DNA of 64,000 bases from Patescibacteria group bacterium (lineage in GTDB: Bacteria > Patescibacteriota > Minisyncoccia > Minisyncoccales > JAHCRE01). The stretch spans positions 12,652 to 76,651 of the forward strand of contig JAHCRH010000001.1 in NCBI GenBank assembly GCA_020148025.1, written 5' to 3'. The number at the start of each line of letters is the position of its first letter. Position 1 is the first letter of the stretch. The notes under the pieces were generated by a model. It was not told the DNA's origin and did no database searches. It saw nothing but the letters and a program-made list of their open reading frames with translations. The translations under genes were made by a program, and so were the position numbers. Below, one piece after another: positions 26,847-61,450 of the stretch.

Positions 26847-27746
26847 TTAGCGCTTCATTGTATAAATACTCCCCCCTAAATTTCTTACTTTACCTTTTAT
26901 TTCCATTATCGCAAGTGTACTCGCCACTGTCGCAGCTTCAAGTTTTGTTTTCTCAATAATTTTATCAATATACAAGGCATCTTCTTTTAGGGCTTCTAAA
27001 ATTAAATTTTCCTCTAAAGTTTCTCCTTCAACGAGAACAGTTCTCGTTGATTTTATTGGTAAGTTTAATTCTTTTAAAATATCGTTGGCGCTTTCTACTA
27101 GTTTGGCTCCTTTTTTAATCAAGAGATGACAACCTTTTGAATTTGAGGAATGAATTGACCCGGGAATAGCAAAAATCTTCCGATTCTGTGTTTTTGCCCA
27201 ATCAGCAGTGATTAAGGCTCCAGATTTTTGTTTTGCTTCAATAACTAAAACCCCTAAACTTAATCCAGAAATTATTCTATTTCTTTGAGGGAAACTAAAT
27301 TGAGTTCCTCGAGTCCCGGGTTCATATTCAGAAATTAAACAGCCGCCTAATTCTAAAATTTTTTTAGCTAATTTTAGATTAGATTAAGGGTAAATGATTT
27401 TTTCATCAAGTCCAGTGCCCAAAACAGCAATTGTCCTTTTCCCTCTCTCGATTGTTGCCTGGTGAACAAAAGTATCAATGCCAGGAGCTAAACCCGAAAC
27501 AATAGTCAATCCGGCTTCGGCTAAGTCTCCGGCAATTTCTAAAGCAATTCTTTTTCCATAGGGAGAAAATCTTCTAGTGCCAACAATTGCAAAACGAGAT
27601 TCTTCCCGCCACAGGCGAGGCTCGTCCATGTGGGCGGCGGCCTTTAATTTACCTAGATAATAAAGAATTTTTGGTGGATTTTTAATCTTCTTTAAAAGTT
27701 TTGGATAATTTTTGTCATTTAAATCGATAGTTTTAATATCTTCCAT
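26847..27746 (-). pseudogene. dprA: DNA processing protein DprA/Smf interrupted by one in-frame TAA
   Basis: N-terminal 120 codons (27384-27746), in-frame TAA at 27384-27386, then 87 codons 'LGGCLISEYEPGT...FPQRNRIISGLSLGVLVIEAKQKSGALITA...AIPG', contiguous with the C-terminal 91 codons (26847-27122). Confidence 0.6.
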
Positions 27747-27823: not shown

Positions 27824-28048
27824 TTGGTAGCGGAGAATGAAAATCTACAACGGGAAATGGAAGAAAGGGTGTTACAAATCTTAAAAAAGAATCCCAACAA
27901 ATTGGTTTCTATTAGCGGTTGGGATTTCATCGGCATCGATTGGGAAGTAATTAAGTCCATGGGGAAAAGAGGGCTTATTAAAATCCATCCTTTTCCACAA
28001 GGAAGCGCGATATTCATAGGTTTGAATGAACAAAATCGCCAATTTTAA
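27824..28048 (+). CDS. hypothetical small protein (74 aa)
   Basis: ORF with upstream promoter-like element. Confidence 0.35.
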   Translation: MVAENENLQREMEERVLQILKKNPNKLVSISGWDFIGIDWEVIKSMGKRGLIKIHPFPQGSAIFIGLNEQNRQF

Positions 28049-28073
28049 CTATAATTAAAAAGAGGAGGGAAAG

Positions 28074-28202
28074 ATGGCTAAAGTCTGCTTTTGTGGTGAG
28101 CCCGCACATGCCAAGGGTCTTTGCGAGAAGCATTACCGGCAGAGTTATCGAAGAAGACCTCAAGTAAGAATTCGACAGAGAATCCGGCGAAAATTCCGAT
28201 AG
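28074..28202 (+). CDS. small Cys/His-containing basic peptide (42 aa)
   Basis: strong RBS 'gaggaggg'; 'MAKVCFCGEPAHAKGLCEKHYRQSYRRRPQVRIRQRIRRKFR'; followed by a terminator. Confidence 0.45.
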   Translation: MAKVCFCGEPAHAKGLCEKHYRQSYRRRPQVRIRQRIRRKFR

Positions 28203-28245
28203 CACCTTAAAATAACGCCTTTCAAGGCGTTTATTTTTATTTTAA
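28203..28245. terminator. bidirectional intrinsic terminator
   Basis: 'aacgcctttcaaggcgtt' plus T-run. Confidence 0.6.
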
Positions 28246-30243
28246 CTTTAATTTCTCAACGGCTTCGGATATCATCTGGCAATACAGATTTAGGCCGACT
28301 TGGTTGATGTTTCCTGACTGTTCTCTCCCCAGAATATTTCCAGCTCCTCGAATTTCCAAATCTTTTAAGGCAATCTTATATCCTGATCCCAAAGCTTCAG
28401 CTTCTTTTAAAGCATCTAATCTCATTTTAGCTTTTTCAGAAAGATTCTGGCCATACAAGAAGAAGGCGAAAGCCTGGGCGTGAGATCTGCCAACCCTTCC
28501 TCTTATTTGATATGCCTCAGCTAAACCTAATCTTGTTCCATCAGCAACAATTAAGGTATTAACATTGGGAAAATCAAGACCGTTTTCAATTATAGTTGTT
28601 GCTACTAGCACATCAAGAGTTTTATTCTGGAATTTAGTCATTACTTTTATTAATTCTTTCTCTTTTAATCTGCCATGGGCAATGCCAATCTTTGCCACGG
28701 GGACAAGTTTTCCCAAAAGATTTTTGACTACTCTAATTGTTTCAATTCTGTTGTGTAGATAATATATTTGACCCTCTCTAGAAATTTCGTTTTCAATCGC
28801 CTCTTTAATAACTTTCTCTGACCAGGGTAAAATAAAAGTTTTAACCGGTAATCGGCCTACTGGTGGAGTTTGGATTAAAGAAATTTTCTTCAAAGAAGAT
28901 AGGGCTAAATATAAAGTTCTGGGAATGGGAGTGGCAGAGAGTGAAAGAATATCAAGAGACGAGCGCATTTTTCTTAATTTTTCTTTTTGTTTGACTCCAA
29001 ATCTTTGTTCGTCATCAATAACTAAAATCCCTAAGTTTTTAAATGCCACATCTTTGGATAAAATTCGGTGAGTGCCAATTATGATGTCGATTTTTCCTTC
29101 TCTTAATTCCTTGGTTATTTCCTTCTGCTCTCTTTTTGATTGTAATCTTGAAAGTAAATTGATTTTAACTGGAAGATTTTTTAACCTTTCTTTGAAATTT
29201 TGAAAATGCTGATTGGCTAAAATTGTTGTCGGGCAAATCATTACTGCCTGGAAGCCTGAGCTCACAACCCTTATCATTGTTCTTAAGGCAATTTCAGTTT
29301 TTCCAAAACCGACATCACCACAAATTAATCTATCTATTGGTTGATTTTTTTCTAAATCTTTTTCTATTTCTTCAATTACCTGGAGTTGATCCGGAGTTTC
29401 AGTATATTGAAAACTCGATGCCAGTTGCGAATCAATTTCATTAGAAGGTAAATAGGGAGGACGGCTGGTAAGCTCTCGTTCGGCGTAGATTTCTAAGAGC
29501 TCTTTGGCTAATTTCTCAGCTCCTTCCTTAATTTTTTTCTTTGTTCTCTGCCAAAGAGGACTGCCTAATCTGGAAATTTTTGGCTGAACAAAACCTATGT
29601 ATCTTGATAATTTTCTCTCCAATCCCACCGGAACATATAATTTGTCCCCCTGGGCGTATTCTAGGACATAATATTGTTGTTGATTGCTTGCCCCGTCGCC
29701 GAGCAGCAGCGAGGTGTTTTCGGGGTTAATTGTTAATCGCTGATTATAAATTCCAATGCCATGATCCAAATGAACCAAAAGGTCCCCTGTTTTTAAATGG
29801 CCTAACTGAGAATAAATTTTTTGATATTTTAGTTTTTTCTTTAGTCTTTCTTTTGCCTCTTTTTCATTTTTGAGTTCGATTTTTAATCTCTCAATTTCTA
29901 AAATTTTATTCCCTAAAAATTCAAATCTTAAAGGAAAATTCAAATTTATTGGAAAAACATCAATGATTCCTCCTCTTTGAGAAAATTCACCAATATCTCC
30001 GACATTATAAACTTTTTCATAACCTAGTTCGTCTAATTTTCTTAAAAACTGAGAAAAATGAAAAATTTGATTTCTTTCTAAAATTAAAGTGTTATCTTGC
30101 CACCAACTTTGAGTTTTTCTTATTTTTAAAATTTTTTCAAAATTTTCTTCAAACCAGAGATTACCTCTTTCTAAAAAATAGGGGATGATACTAACGATTA
30201 ATACCTTATTTAGATTTTCTTCTTTTAGCATCTTTAGCCCCAC
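28237..30243 (-). CDS. mfd: transcription-repair coupling factor Mfd, short form of 668 aa
   Basis: 'RGGIIDVFP', SF2 helicase motifs 'GDVGFGKTE', 'DEQRFGV', TRG motif region; lacks much of the canonical N-terminus. Confidence 0.8.
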   Translation of the reverse strand: MGLKMLKEENLNKVLIVSIIPYFLERGNLWFEENFEKILKIRKTQSWWQDNTLILERNQIFHFSQFLRKLDELGYEKVYNVGDIGEFSQRGGIIDVFPINLNFPLRFEFLGNKILEIERLKIELKNEKEAKERLKKKLKYQKIYSQLGHLKTGDLLVHLDHGIGIYNQRLTINPENTSLLLGDGASNQQQYYVLEYAQGDKLYVPVGLERKLSRYIGFVQPKISRLGSPLWQRTKKKIKEGAEKLAKELLEIYAERELTSRPPYLPSNEIDSQLASSFQYTETPDQLQVIEEIEKDLEKNQPIDRLICGDVGFGKTEIALRTMIRVVSSGFQAVMICPTTILANQHFQNFKERLKNLPVKINLLSRLQSKREQKEITKELREGKIDIIIGTHRILSKDVAFKNLGILVIDDEQRFGVKQKEKLRKMRSSLDILSLSATPIPRTLYLALSSLKKISLIQTPPVGRLPVKTFILPWSEKVIKEAIENEISREGQIYYLHNRIETIRVVKNLLGKLVPVAKIGIAHGRLKEKELIKVMTKFQNKTLDVLVATTIIENGLDFPNVNTLIVADGTRLGLAEAYQIRGRVGRSHAQAFAFFLYGQNLSEKAKMRLDALKEAEALGSGYKIALKDLEIRGAGNILGREQSGNINQVGLNLYCQMISEAVEKLKLK

Positions 30244-30267
30244 ACCAATAAGATTGATAGTGGGGTC

Positions 30268-30296
30268 TTGACAAATTAAATTTTATTTTTTATAAT
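30268..30296 (+). promoter_or_regulatory. consensus promoter TTGACA-17-TATAAT
   Basis: 'ttgacaaattaaattttattttttataat'. Confidence 0.65.
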
Positions 30297-30302
30297 ATAA
30301 AT

Positions 30303-30560
30303 TAAGAAAGGTTTTGCCTTGCAGCCTATCTGTGAGTGGCTCCGCCTGTTGAAATTTCTTTGAAATTTTAACAGATGAAAAAAGTAAGGTTATCCCTCCT
30401 GAAAACCTTACAGAGCTCATTAGCTATGGTTGAGGAGCAATCTTCTTTTAATTATAGCGCTCGCCCCGTAGTAAATTTTTACTGTGGGGTGTGAAGCTCG
30501 TGGTGAAATACTTATGTATTTTTACTACGGGGCTCGCAGATAGACTGGAGGGCAGAATTA
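30303..30560 (+). ncRNA. structured RNA or long 5' leader of about 260 nt (6S-like or riboswitch/attenuator-like; unidentified)
   Basis: closing helix 5' 'cctatctgtgag' with 3' 'ctcgcagatag'; three mutually exclusive pairing segments 'gccccgtagtaaa', 'tactgtgggg', 'tttactacggggc'; no terminator before ORF 30709. Confidence 0.4.
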
Positions 30561-30708
30561 GTTATTAGTTGTTAGATTTTAGTTTGTAGTTCTTTTAAAA
30601 TTCAATGGCTCTTATGGGTAGGAACTGGATTGGTAGAATTTCTAATTTCAAATTTCTAATACCTAATAATCTGGTTTCTACTCATAGGAGCAGAAGGAGA
30701 AATGAAGA

Positions 30709-31239
30709 ATGTCTGAAGAAAAAGAGAAGATTCAAGAAAAACTGCGCGAATTGTGGAAAAGTCACAAGAAATATCAGGAAAAATTTCCGGGAGTAAAGAG
30801 AGAAGTGAAGTATATAATGATACCAATGAAAGGACTCTCGCTATTTTGGAAAAGAGGAAGCGACGGAAAGTTAATTAAAACGCCAGCAGTTGGAGGAATA
30901 AAAGAGCAAAATAATTCTTCTCAAGTGGAAATAATGATCGTTATTGCCGAAGAAATACCAAAAAAATTCCAGCGTTACGTTGTATATCATGAATGGGTGG
31001 AAGCAATCAGCGTCAGCGAACGTACTTTAAGAGAAGAAGATTGTCTCGCTAGTCTTTTCCTTCACGCAAGTGCTACAGAAGCAGAAATTGAGTTAGCTAA
31101 GAAGGAGTTATCCAAAGAGGAGTTTAATTCTTATCTTCTATGGCGTCTACGAAAAGAACTAGATAGTCCAATCCTTCGTCGAAAAAGTTCTTTGAAAATA
31201 AAACTTCTCGCACGCTTGGGGCACTTAATAGATCGGTAG
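30709..31239 (+). CDS. hypothetical protein (176 aa)
   Basis: good RBS 'aggaga' 8 nt upstream. Confidence 0.5.
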   Translation: MSEEKEKIQEKLRELWKSHKKYQEKFPGVKREVKYIMIPMKGLSLFWKRGSDGKLIKTPAVGGIKEQNNSSQVEIMIVIAEEIPKKFQRYVVYHEWVEAISVSERTLREEDCLASLFLHASATEAEIELAKKELSKEEFNSYLLWRLRKELDSPILRRKSSLKIKLLARLGHLIDR

Positions 31240-31247
31240 CCCCTTTT

Positions 31248-31847
31248 TTATTTATTAAACTCATTCATTGTCTTTTCGATTCCTTCTATTATCGCCACCT
31301 CAATTGCCTGGCAAGTTCGTTTAATAACTTCTTTTAAAAGTTTCTCCTCTTTTTTAGTAAATTTTTGAAGAAGAAAACTCTCTAGGGTTTTAGGGTCTAG
31401 GGTATAGGGTTTAGGTTTAATTCCGATTCTGAAACGGACAAAGTTTTTTGTTCCCAACTCATCAGTTATTGATTGAATTCCTTTGTGGCCAGCTGCTCCC
31501 CGATTTTTGATAATTTTCATTTTTCCTAAAGGCAGATCGATATCGTCGTGAACAATAATTAGGTTATTAGGGTCTAGGGTATAGGGTTTAGTTAATAATT
31601 TTACTGCTTTTCCGGAATTGTTCATAAAGGTCTGGGGTTTAGCTAAGATAACTTTCTTCTTATCCAATCTACCTTCTGAAATTAAAGAATTGAATTTTTT
31701 AGAAAATCTAAATTTTGGGAATTTCTTTTCCTTTGCAAATTGATTGACAACTCGAAAACCAAGGTTGTGCCGAGTCCTAATATATTTTCTTCCTGGATTG
31801 CCCAGACCAACAATGAGTGTCATATTAACATTTAAACATATTAACAT
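31248..31847 (-). CDS. pth: peptidyl-tRNA hydrolase
   Basis: 'MTLIVGLGNPGRKYIRTRHNLGF', 'IVHDDIDLPLGK'; contains two identical 25-bp copies of a repeat. Confidence 0.9.
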   Translation of the reverse strand: MLICLNVNMTLIVGLGNPGRKYIRTRHNLGFRVVNQFAKEKKFPKFRFSKKFNSLISEGRLDKKKVILAKPQTFMNNSGKAVKLLTKPYTLDPNNLIIVHDDIDLPLGKMKIIKNRGAAGHKGIQSITDELGTKNFVRFRIGIKPKPYTLDPKTLESFLLQKFTKKEEKLLKEVIKRTCQAIEVAIIEGIEKTMNEFNK

Positions 31848-31960
31848 CTAAACATTTTTAATTTATGTTTAGACGTTTACGTATTTATATGAGATCGGTT
31901 AGTTAATTATATCATTCCTCTTGCAGAATAAAAAAACTTTGGTATAATGAGATAAATCTT

Positions 31961-32515
31961 ATGCTAAAGCTGAAAAATTTTTTCATATTCATCTGGGATA
32001 TACTAAAAATTATTTTCCTTGCCTTGGTGATAGTTGTTCCGATCCGCTATTTTTTGTTTCAACCTTTTTTAGTTAAAGGTCAGTCAATGGAACCTACTTT
32101 TCAAAATAGCGATTATCTAATTATTGATGAAATTTCTTACCGATTCAGAGAACCCGAAAGGGGAGAGGTGGTAGTTTTTAAATATCCTCAAAATCCCTCT
32201 CAGCGCTTCATTAAAAGAATCATTGGTTTGCCTGGGGAAACAGTAGAAATAAAGGAGGGTAAAGTAATAATAATCAAAGATGATAAAACTCAAGTATTAG
32301 ATGAATCCAGCTATCTCCCCAAAGCTTTAAAGACTTCCGGCAATCTCCGAATTACCTTGGCTGAAAATGAATTCTTTGTCTTAGGAGATAACCGGAGGCT
32401 TTCAGCTGATTCCAGGAGCTGGGGGCCATTGTTTAGGGAGAATATTATTGGCCGGGTATTCTTCAGAGCCTGGCCAATTACAGCTTTAGCTTTAATTAAA
32501 GAACCAAGTTATTAA
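31961..32515 (+). CDS. lepB: signal peptidase I
   Basis: 'GQSMEPTF', 'RIIGLPGE', 'VLGDNRRLSADSR'. Confidence 0.9.
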   Translation: MLKLKNFFIFIWDILKIIFLALVIVVPIRYFLFQPFLVKGQSMEPTFQNSDYLIIDEISYRFREPERGEVVVFKYPQNPSQRFIKRIIGLPGETVEIKEGKVIIIKDDKTQVLDESSYLPKALKTSGNLRITLAENEFFVLGDNRRLSADSRSWGPLFRENIIGRVFFRAWPITALALIKEPSY

Positions 32516-44597: not shown

Positions 44598-44810
44598 ATG
44601 ATACAACCAAGAACAATGTTAAAAGTAGCTGATGTCGCGGCACGCGATCGCTTCGCTCCGCTAACACCGCTCCTTGAAACCTTGCGGTTTCAATACTTCC
44701 ACTACGGGAAAACACCCAGTTTTCCCGACCCCTTTCTATTATCAGCTACTTTTGATAGTATTTATTACTACTTTTTAAATAAAATTAAGTTTATTCTAAA
44801 AATAAAATGA
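44598..44810 (+). other. upstream ORF made of a duplicated rplN start (12 codons) fused to a family-A repeat element; its TGA overlaps the rplN ATG
   Basis: 44598-44633 'atgatacaaccaagaacaatgttaaaagtagctgat' versus 44807-44842 'atgatacaacctaggactatgctaaaagtagctgat'; four differences, all synonymous. Confidence 0.5.
44634..44733 (-). repeat. GC-rich palindromic element, family A copy (reverse orientation)
   Basis: 'gtcgcggcacgcga...ctacgggaaaacacccagttttcccgacccc'. Confidence 0.7.
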
Positions 44811-46847: not shown

Positions 46848-46990
46848 GTCGGGAGAACCCTCCGGTTCTCCCGTATAGGAAAACAGCGAGCGAAGCTCGC
46901 GTTAGAAACCGAGGGTTTCTAAAGAGCGAGCCCGAAGCGACCCGCCCAGGGCGGGGAGCACCAGAACTTTGTTCTGGAGAGGGCGAGCGA
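46848..46990 (+). repeat. GC-rich palindromic element, family A copy (diverged), between rpsH and rplF
   Basis: 'ggtcgggagaaccctccggttctcccgtataggaaaacagcgagcgaagc...accagaactttgttctgg'. Confidence 0.55.
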
Positions 46991-56143: not shown

Positions 56144-56824
56144 ATGGATAAATTTTTAAAAGGTTATTTTTATAATCCCACTCGAGGAAATTTGAAAATC
56201 AAGGAGGTGATGGAGGAAATGTTAAGCTACATGAAGGAGAAACCAGAAAAGTTTTACGATATTATTGTTGGTTGTGATTCTTCCTCTGGAGAGAAATTCA
56301 ATTTCCCAGTGGCAGTGGTTATTTTAAGAGTAGGGGAAGGAGGGAGATTTTTTCTTAAAAAAATAAATTATCCTCCATCTCTAAGAAAAAAATTTTCCAA
56401 TTGGAAAATGCGAGTTTTGGAAGAAGTTTTATTATCCTGTGAATTAGCTCTATTCTTAAGAGAGAACTTTGAGAAAAAGATAAAAAGTGAATCAAATGCT
56501 TTTGATAAAAAGCCAGAAGGGGGTCGGGAAAACTGGGTGTTTTCCCGTGGTGGAAACAGGGAGGCTGAAAGCCGACCGCCAGAACCGCAAGGTTCTGGGG
56601 AGCTGAGCGAAGCGAGCCCAAAGGGCAAGCGCCAGCCGAAGGCTGGAGAAGCGAAGCAACCTTTTAATTATCAACTTCGTTATATTCATGCTGATATTGG
56701 AGAGCACGGTCAGACAAGAGATATGATAAAAGAAGTTACTGGTTTAATCCGGGGAAATGGCTTTGAGCCAAAGATTAAACCAGAGTCCTATGTAGCTTCA
56801 ACGGTGGCTGATAGATACAGCTAA
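56144..56824 (+). CDS. YkuK/DUF458-family RNase H-like protein carrying an in-frame family-A element insertion of about 150 nt
   Basis: 'IIVGCDSS' ; insertion encodes 'PEGGRENWVFSRGGNREAESRPPEPQGSGELSEASPKGKRQPKAGEAKQP'. Confidence 0.6.
   Translation: MDKFLKGYFYNPTRGNLKIKEVMEEMLSYMKEKPEKFYDIIVGCDSSSGEKFNFPVAVVILRVGEGGRFFLKKINYPPSLRKKFSNWKMRVLEEVLLSCELALFLRENFEKKIKSESNAFDKKPEGGRENWVFSRGGNREAESRPPEPQGSGELSEASPKGKRQPKAGEAKQPFNYQLRYIHADIGEHGQTRDMIKEVTGLIRGNGFEPKIKPESYVASTVADRYS
56517..56660 (+). repeat. GC-rich palindromic element, family A copy, inside the ykuK-like ORF
   Basis: 'gggtcgggaaaactgggtgttttcccgtggtggaaacagggagg...ccagaaccgcaaggttctgg...gcgaagcg'. Confidence 0.7.
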
Positions 56825-61125: not shown

Positions 61126-61218
61126 AGCGAGCAAGACGCGCTCCGCAATGGCAGAAGAGATAATTCTTGTTTGATGGGATAAATAAATATTTTTTAGAAC
61201 TTTAATCCAAATTTCAGA

Positions 61219-61450
61219 AAGGGGTCGGGAAAACTAGGTGTTTTCCCGTATAGGAAGACAGGGAGGAGCGAAGCGACGACCGCCAGAAACCGAGAGGTGT
61301 CTGGGGAGCGGAGCGAAGGTCGCCAAGGGCGACCGCTCGAGCGAAGCGCGAGGGAGGAGAGCGACAATATTGATGCTTCGACAGAGGCTCAGCATTAACC
61401 CTGAGGACATTCGGCTGAGCTCAGTCGAAGCCCTTGTCGAATGGGTTGAC
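61219..61450 (+). repeat. composite GC-rich element: family A copy (61219-61374) followed by a family B copy (61372-61450)
   Basis: 'ggggtcgggaaaactaggtgttttcccgtataggaagacagggagg...' then 'gctcagcattaaccctgagg...gtcgaatgggttgac'. Confidence 0.65.

Follow-up and report, generated by a model that had tools for sequence, protein, structure and literature searches.

The RNA gene between mfd and pth

The window, the whole 64-kb stretch of DNA that was analysed, contains, at 30268-30561, a small-RNA (sRNA) gene with a consensus promoter. The gene is placed between mfd (28237-30243) and pth (31248-31847), which were identified by Pfam matches and synteny and are both encoded on the minus strand, opposite to the sRNA. 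The mfd gene is divergent from the sRNA, and pth is convergent with the sRNA/ORF transcript. The sigma-70 promoter consists of a -35 TTGACA (30268-30273), a 17-nt spacer and a -10 TATAAT (30291-30296) on the plus strand. It had been described in the initial annotation as a perfect TTGACA-17-TATAAT, and the promoter scan agrees, with a score of 12/12 and no other perfect match within 29500-32000. The promoter sequence is identical in the aligned relatives of the window, and 60 of 70 loci of the family described below have a 12/12 consensus promoter. Transcription probably starts near 30303; this position, like the RNA ends and processing given here, is predicted from the sequence.

On the other side of mfd, dprA (26847-27746) apparently consists of two minus-strand ORFs in the window (27384-27746 and 26847-27122), compared with a single gene of 289-290 aa in relatives. 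An insertion or a frameshift may account for this difference. The interval between mfd and dprA, ~60 nt in relatives, contains two small ORFs on the plus strand of the window (27824-28202), one of which has a CxxC...CxxH motif.

The RNA itself, a long-form member of its family, spans 254 nt of the plus strand (30308-30561). This is the single match of the family covariance model in the 64-kb window, at 108.7 bits (E = 3e-28) vs 31.5 bits on the minus strand. Against shuffled sequences, the region 30297-30708 folds at -157.6 kcal/mol with z = -10.8, and the core at 30320-30560 has a z of -8.9. In the minimum-free-energy folds a closing helix, P1, pairs the 5′ strand GGUUUUGCCUUGCAGCCUAUCUGUGAG (30310-30336) with the 3′ strand CUCGCAGAUAGACUGGAGGGCAGAAUU (30533-30559), at ~27 nt per strand. 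A long closing helix had been proposed for this RNA, and it proves longer than described. The P1 3′ strand, which is also supported by covariation, includes a Shine-Dalgarno (SD)-like GGAGGG. Within P1, the short helix P1b (30338-30417, formed by 30338-42 with 30413-17) encloses P2 and P3, and its three model pairs covary between GC and AU or CG and UA. P2 (30346-30374) is a variable hairpin, missing from the short members of ~140 nt, with compensatory changes in 12 of 12 pairs; three double changes separate the window from locus L003. P3 (30384-30411) carries the apical loop AUCCCUCCU (30392-30400), the element conserved across the family, which is anti-SD-like. By alignment and covariation, the P4a hairpin (30423-30458) is the counterpart of the family P4.

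Between P4 and the P1 3′ strand sits a clade-specific insert of ~73 nt (30463-30532), recognised from alignments, repeats and energetics, which forms two hairpins. Within alignments A1 and A2, the insert is limited to the window, L001 and L003/L004/L007. The second, last hairpin of the insert resembles the P4 of other subtypes (e.g. L060 and L061), and the 3′ arm of the first is a copy of the 3′ arm of the last. The insert contains the three segments which the initial annotation considered mutually exclusive in their pairing. The repeats are present: GCCCCGTAGTAAA (30463-75) and TTTACTACGGGGC (30521-33) are inverted repeats that match perfectly over 13 nt, and ATTTTTACTGTGGGG (30475-89) repeats 30518-32 in direct orientation at 87%, a partial duplication. 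Alternative pairing can also be drawn on paper, since the copied arm allows the segments to cross-pair. Real exclusivity is not supported, as forcing 30463-75 to pair with 30521-33 costs +6.1 kcal/mol and gives an ensemble probability of ~5e-5. The whole insert lies inside P1, therefore no terminator or SD sequence hinges on its pairing choice. The proposed antiterminator or anti-sequester geometry is thus not supported, the segments being within the closing helix, confined to one clade and dependent on a strongly disfavoured fold. The same facts count against the RNA as a riboswitch or attenuator leader, in which a ligand or an alternative pairing controls the downstream gene: the segments are clade-specific, the switch conformer is 6 kcal/mol worse and no competing hairpin comes near P1 in stability.

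A further element of ~80 nt is found between mfd and the sRNA promoter in L073, L076 and L114. Its terminal inverted repeats (CCCCGTAGTAGATTTT...AAAATTCACTACGGGG) resemble the window arms 30463-75 and 30521-33, and it may be related to the insert of the window clade.

A family of structured RNAs in Patescibacteria

A search with nhmmer located the RNA just upstream of mfd in 13 further genome loci, and a metagenome scan with the 3′ motif GCRGRYAGRCYRGAGRGYAAAA returned at least 120 loci. At least 110 RNA-bearing loci were gathered and 78 distinct copies were aligned. Members are typically ~175 nt long, with short forms of ~140 nt and ~250 nt in the window clade. The covariance model, R1, combines 18 diverse members with a hand-curated structure of 57 pairs, comprising P1 (23 bp), P1b (3 bp), P2 (12 bp), P3 (5 bp) and P4 (14 bp). 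It finds one copy per locus, scoring 150-184 bits on the promoter strand vs 40-55 bits on the reverse.

In an alignment of 73 sequences, which is fitted to R1, 92.7% of cells are paired vs 75.6% in shuffles and 38-52% with slid partners. Double (compensatory) changes occur in 45 of the 57 model pairs, and the covariation score is 0.475 vs 0.193; the observed values were reached by none of 500 shuffles. P1 is 95% paired over its 23 bp and has double changes in 11 pairs, with U·G the dominant pair at two fixed positions. An independent, earlier MAFFT/RNAalifold run also recovered P1, P1b and P4 with compensatory changes. Comparative folding, called for by the initial annotation, thus bears out a genuine structured RNA downstream of the TTGACA-17-TATAAT promoter. 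The existence of a conserved family of such RNAs in Patescibacteria (Parcubacteria/Paceibacteria) is almost certain.

Sequence conservation of 90% or more is found in the 73-sequence consensus only in the two P1 strands (CUAnCUGcGAG and CUCGCAGgUAGnCcGGAGgGcAAAA) and in the P3 loop, AUCCCUCCUU. The junction nucleotides are not conserved and appear as ‘n’. A riboswitch is unlikely on this ground, as the consensus holds no conserved ligand-binding core.

The gene order is shared, with mfd divergent upstream and pth convergent downstream in nearly all of the at least 110 loci with enough flank; the exceptions are L047, L053, L095 and L123. Since the motif scan was blind to context and still gave this synteny, one RNA copy per genome at a fixed locus is argued for. 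A single copy at a single fixed locus is again not what a riboswitch reading would favour. Sister lineages, such as L020-L022 and L038, lack the RNA and have pth abutting mfd, so the RNA is specific to its clade and not essential.

In typical members the start codon of Mfd lies inside the spacer of the sRNA promoter, and ATGGATTTGTCAAGG is the reverse complement of CCTTGACAAATCCAT. A second promoter, TTGACA-17-TATTAT, is present on the mfd strand and overlaps the -10 palindrome of the sRNA, with the mfd ATG ~10 nt after the mfd-strand -10 (e.g. L066:878-960). As the ATG is this close to the -10 and the promoters overlap, the arrangement implies that mfd would be leaderless and that the divergent sRNA and mfd promoters would be mutually exclusive. 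The start of mfd is shifted ~40 nt away in the window clade (window 30231-30300).

The possibility that P1 is a DNA-level inverted repeat, part of a mobile element or a chance structure is extremely remote. P1 is indeed a long inverted repeat, and a GC-rich dispersed repeat has inserted at the L001 locus. Set against this are the dominance of G·U at fixed P1 positions and the strong strand asymmetry of the model score, together with the covariation of the internal hairpins. Furthermore, the RNA occupies a single syntenic locus, and a scan of viral contigs with the RNA motif gave 0 matches.

The GC-rich dispersed repeat is ~155-180 nt in length (GGGGGTCGGGGAAACTGAG...CCAGAAACCGAGAGGTGTCTGG...) and occurs in the window at 61209-61363, 56517-56650, 44696-44738 and 46865-46952. 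In L001 (L001:3735-3914) it lies between the sRNA promoter and P1, where it splits a 5′ extension of the helix. It is also found beside the RNA in L008, L058, L099 and L111, and could be a MITE or another RNA.

At the gathering threshold, Rfam 15 detected only a tRNA elsewhere in the whole window. At E <= 10, scans of the window RNA and of one typical and one short member returned nothing beyond noise, in matches to miRNA and snoRNA models. The Rfam check recommended earlier thus places the RNA outside Rfam 15. Among other candidates, signal recognition particle (SRP) RNA, RNase P, tmRNA, retron and T-box were dropped, as there were no model matches, no RT, no tandem repeats and no T-box sequence. 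A type III antitoxin, outside the scope of Rfam here, was dropped on anatomy alone, there being no tandem repeats. The literature searched on structured RNAs of Patescibacteria/CPR, 6S RNA and anti-SD mimics yielded nothing relevant. It is well supported that this conserved, independently promoted and structured RNA family is new.

A 6S-like RNA had been among the initial suggestions. The RNA resembles 6S RNA (RF00013) in being single-copy, ~180 nt in length, driven by a strong promoter and closed by a long stem. It differs in having a four-helix junction with no central bubble, in not being universal and in matching neither the 6S model nor any other in Rfam at E <= 10; the multibranched fold and the absent match speak against the suggestion. 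A broader form of this explanation, a housekeeping protein-binding RNA that acts as a 6S-like polymerase binder or as a decoy for a factor of the 16S tail, with the downstream region a merely permissive insertion site, is unlikely. The single copy, the consensus promoter, the length of ~175 nt and the sequence-conserved closing stem would fit it, as would the adjoining polymerase-associated gene, mfd, and a loop which nearly copies the 16S tail sequence GAUCACCUCCUUA. The lack of any 6S, SRP, RNase P or tmRNA signal at E <= 10, a multibranched topology in place of a rod with a central bubble, and the absence of the RNA from sister lineages all weigh against it.

The downstream slot and its cargo

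In the window, P1 is followed by a spacer specific to the window genome (30562-30708, plus strand), which contains a long hairpin at 30608-30691 and then the SD sequence AAGGAG (30695-30700). The hairpin is near-perfect (-37.7 kcal/mol), ends 3 nt before the SD sequence and belongs to the insertion specific to the window genome; no convincing copies of it were found elsewhere. The orphan ORF which follows, ORF 30709 (ORF176; 30709-31239, plus strand), encodes 176 aa and is annotated by NCBI as KJA16_00225 of “Patescibacteria group bacterium”. The initial annotation credited it with a good ribosome-binding site, and the AAGGAG 8 nt upstream of its ATG agrees with this. It had also reported no terminator ahead of this ORF, and the terminator scan likewise found no terminator-like site there; ORF 30709 is probably co-transcribed with the RNA. 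At the end of the ORF, a weak terminator-like hairpin (GGGGC, 16-nt loop, GCCCC) with a T6 run was read from the sequence at 31218-31249 on the plus strand, abutting the pth stop codon. The terminator scan passed over it, its loop being above the 8-nt limit.

ORF176 has no Pfam or NCBIfam match, and a word-indexed search of a set of 5.8 billion proteins returned only itself. Exhaustive phmmer searches found one real homologue, P0122 (E = 4e-9, 36% identity), plus noise from repeat proteins. The AlphaFold model of ORF176 has a pLDDT of 57, too poor for a fold search. ORF176 and P0122 (L160:1156-1644) have in common an RYVVYHEW-E motif, which is HExxE-like. P0122 sits after a GDPD gene, and the covariance model finds no RNA copy on its contig. 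It had been proposed to check whether homologues of the ORF carry the same leader; the only homologue does not.

The closest relatives of the window were fetched via Mfd and are 88-91% identical in this protein. In these genomes pth and mfd are separated by a gap without any called gene. The promoter and RNA lie there, at 85-90% DNA identity, and are followed by a hairpin (TCGAGT...ACTCGA) with a T-run and the pth stop. L001, L003 and L004 thus have the RNA and a terminator and lack the ORF. The homology of the window to L001 stops near 30592, and relative to these genomes the window has an insertion of ~650 bp (about 30593-31243) containing the long hairpin and ORF176. ORF 30709 is therefore a gene particular to this lineage, which entered a rapidly changing slot downstream of the RNA. 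The view of the RNA as the leader of an ORF-30709 family does not survive the comparison with these relatives, which keep the promoter and RNA without the ORF. A dedicated role of the RNA as leader or switch of ORF176 is very improbable.

The slot is occupied in most members. In ~80% of loci, an ORF with a strong SD sequence is found mostly 10-45 nt past P1, with no terminator between, and in ~20% no downstream ORF was found. The first ORFs belong to ~25 unrelated families. GGDEF diguanylate cyclases are the commonest cargo, with 13 distinct proteins confirmed by Pfam. Other cargo includes a family of 57-63 aa (MWEVKxFKGTLP), Zn-ribbon proteins and a HAD hydrolase, and several peptides of 40-67 aa have one membrane helix and a charged tail. 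Turnover of the cargo is fast, since near-identical RNAs precede different cargo: an MWEVK protein in L066, a membrane peptide in L073, a Zn-ribbon protein in L115 and nothing in L060.

In the ORF-less loci, when the flanks are read by eye, the RNA is followed by a hairpin with a T-run or runs into the 3′ end of pth. Their model scores (e.g. 174 for L060 and L053, 164 for L130) equal those of ORF-bearing members. As the ORF-less members score equally and show compensatory substitutions, the RNA is kept for its own sake. In L013, L027, L053, L060, L064, L093, L120 and L130, AATCGCTTCGGCGGTTTTTTTT is located 75-95 nt past the RNA and forms a UUCG-loop hairpin with a U8 run. This hairpin is within the coding region of pth, antisense to the codons for KKTAEAI, where codon choices are GC-rich. 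These codon choices suggest that the 3′ end of pth also serves to terminate the sRNA, in which case the tail of the sRNA would be antisense to pth.

Directly past P1, 16 of 69 distinct 3′ flanks (23%) contain a G[CT]TCTT..A element, vs 1.3% in the background. Examples are L098, L092, L032 and L019, and the window has GTTCTTTTAAAA at 30589-30600. The element is complementary to the P1 3′ strand and resembles boxA (GCUCUUUAACAA). In several loci it encodes a mini-ORF (MLLLF, MLLIF or MLLQF) with a UUG start 7-11 nt past GGAGGG.

A riboswitch or attenuator leader, as suggested by the initial annotation, draws its best arguments from this region. An ORF lies directly after the RNA with no terminator between in those ~80% of loci, and the commonest cargo is the GGDEF diguanylate cyclase. 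The GGAGGG of P1 is 4-12 nt ahead of the start codon in L054, L095, L077 and L068, and the UUUUGCUCUU module, with its complementarity to the P1 3′ strand, recurs in the 16 of 69 flanks at far above background. A switch would nevertheless have to serve ~25 unrelated cargo families and some loci with none, the homologue of the window ORF has no RNA, and the RNA is kept with covariation where the ORF is missing. Given the unconserved junctions, the single fixed locus and the unrelated downstream genes, this explanation is quite improbable.

It has also been considered that the RNA is an expression or processing cassette, in which the strong promoter and the P1 stalk would express and stabilise any accessory gene landing downstream. 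The small hydrophobic peptides would then be translationally locked, as with type I toxin mRNAs. The fast cargo turnover between near-identical RNAs (L066, L073, L115 and L060), the several charged-tail membrane peptides of 40-67 aa, and the near-continuous P1 duplex of at least 23 bp are all in keeping with this. A cassette leaves the conserved loop and the retention of RNAs without cargo unexplained, and no antisense antitoxin or recombination sites were found. The likelihood assigned to it is low. The leaders of type I toxin mRNAs (hok, aapA1) share the long-range 5′-3′ pairing, the anti-SD elements and, in some cases, hydrophobic peptides downstream. They differ from the present family, whose cargo is mostly not toxin-like, which has no antisense RNA that could be found and whose leader is conserved independently of the ORF.

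The conserved loop and proposed function

Even the most divergent members found (L005, L024, L009 and L049) have the core of the P3 loop, CCCUCCUU, and the only variants seen are CACUCCUU in L033 and CCCUCCUG in the window clade. The loop is unpaired in the consensus structure, with a predicted unpaired probability of 0.73 in the window and a family mean of 0.51. In approximately half of the members, the predicted folding partly pairs the loop with the neighbouring G-rich junction. The 3′ tail of 16S rRNA, GAUCACCUCCUUA, is the anti-Shine-Dalgarno sequence. The loop AUCCCUCCUU looks like this tail and is complementary to AAGGAGGGAU and to canonical SD sequences. Complementarity to SD sequences is a generic property of C-rich loops, and extended complements of the P3 loop occur within the window at chance level, with no target found.

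A pseudoknot between the P3 loop and the GGAGGG of P1 was rejected. Where GGAGGG varies (e.g. to GGAGAG), the P1 5′ strand carries the compensating change and the loop stays the same. Because the variants covary with that strand and not with the loop, the partner of the loop is external.

The best guess, which carries about an even chance of being correct, is that the family consists of regulatory RNAs, stand-alone or dual-function, which pair with ribosome-binding sites. The mechanism by which SD sequences would be paired is more tentative and is put forward as a possibility from the sequences. The C-rich P3 loop would base-pair with ribosome-binding sites, a proposal made because the P1 sequence and the SD-complementary P3 loop are all that stays constant across the family. 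It might act in cis on the ORF that follows within its transcript, on other mRNAs in trans, or in both ways. P1 may serve as a stabilising or processing stalk of the RNase III type, or as a stalk for protein recognition, roles proposed because this long duplex is conserved in sequence. Recognition by a protein is an alternative explanation for the high sequence conservation of P1. In the window, the transcript would be a dual-function RNA, a conserved sRNA and at the same time the 5′ part of the ORF-176 mRNA.

Comparable regulators are known in other bacteria. RsaE/RoxS, the UCCC-motif Rsa RNAs and the RNAIII hairpins of Firmicutes are sRNAs with C-rich loops which are complementary to SD sequences and act in translational repression. 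The Patescibacteria RNA is similar in its independent transcription, with a promoter in 60 of 70 loci and, by eye, a hairpin and T-run in ORF-less loci, and in its conserved, exposed C-rich loop complementary to the G-rich SD sequence; repression is presumed. It belongs to a different phylum and shows no homology to these sRNAs, being larger and multibranched, with a closing helix of 23-27 bp and one loop similar to the 16S tail. RNAIII-hld, SR1-SR1P and SgrS-SgrT are dual-function sRNA/mRNAs. These likewise combine a structured RNA and a small ORF on one transcript; in the Patescibacteria family, unlike in these systems, the RNA is conserved and the ORF is interchangeable or absent. Leaders and processing stalks of rRNA operons, with boxA, serve only as a lead and resemble the family in the consensus promoter, the long 5′/3′ stalk, the 16S-tail-like sequence and the GCUCUUA/GUUCUUUA element in a subset of flanks. 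The family differs from them in having no rRNA, and its boxA-like element, present in 23% of flanks, is alternatively a mini-ORF or a complement of P1.

A more speculative and rather doubtful reading is that the RNA is a lineage-specific ‘anti-Shine-Dalgarno mimic’. In this reading, an RNA of high abundance and stability would present a copy of the 16S tail on a long stalk and could act as a general sponge for ribosome-binding sites or for a 16S-tail factor, with an integron-like cargo slot that lacks an integrase. If true, its promoter would overlap the promoter of a leaderless mfd and drive a slot which exchanges diguanylate cyclases and membrane peptides.

Patescibacteria form a very large branch of bacteria, for the most part uncultured, whose genomes are tiny and in which few regulators are known, and no characterised regulatory RNA of the group was found in the literature searched. 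With its comparative support, precise genomic address and conserved loop as a handle, the family offers an entry point to post-transcriptional control in these organisms, and its covariance model is usable by annotators. Two further oddities, the overlap of the sRNA promoter with that of a putatively leaderless mfd and the rapid change of the cargo slot, are testable in their own right.
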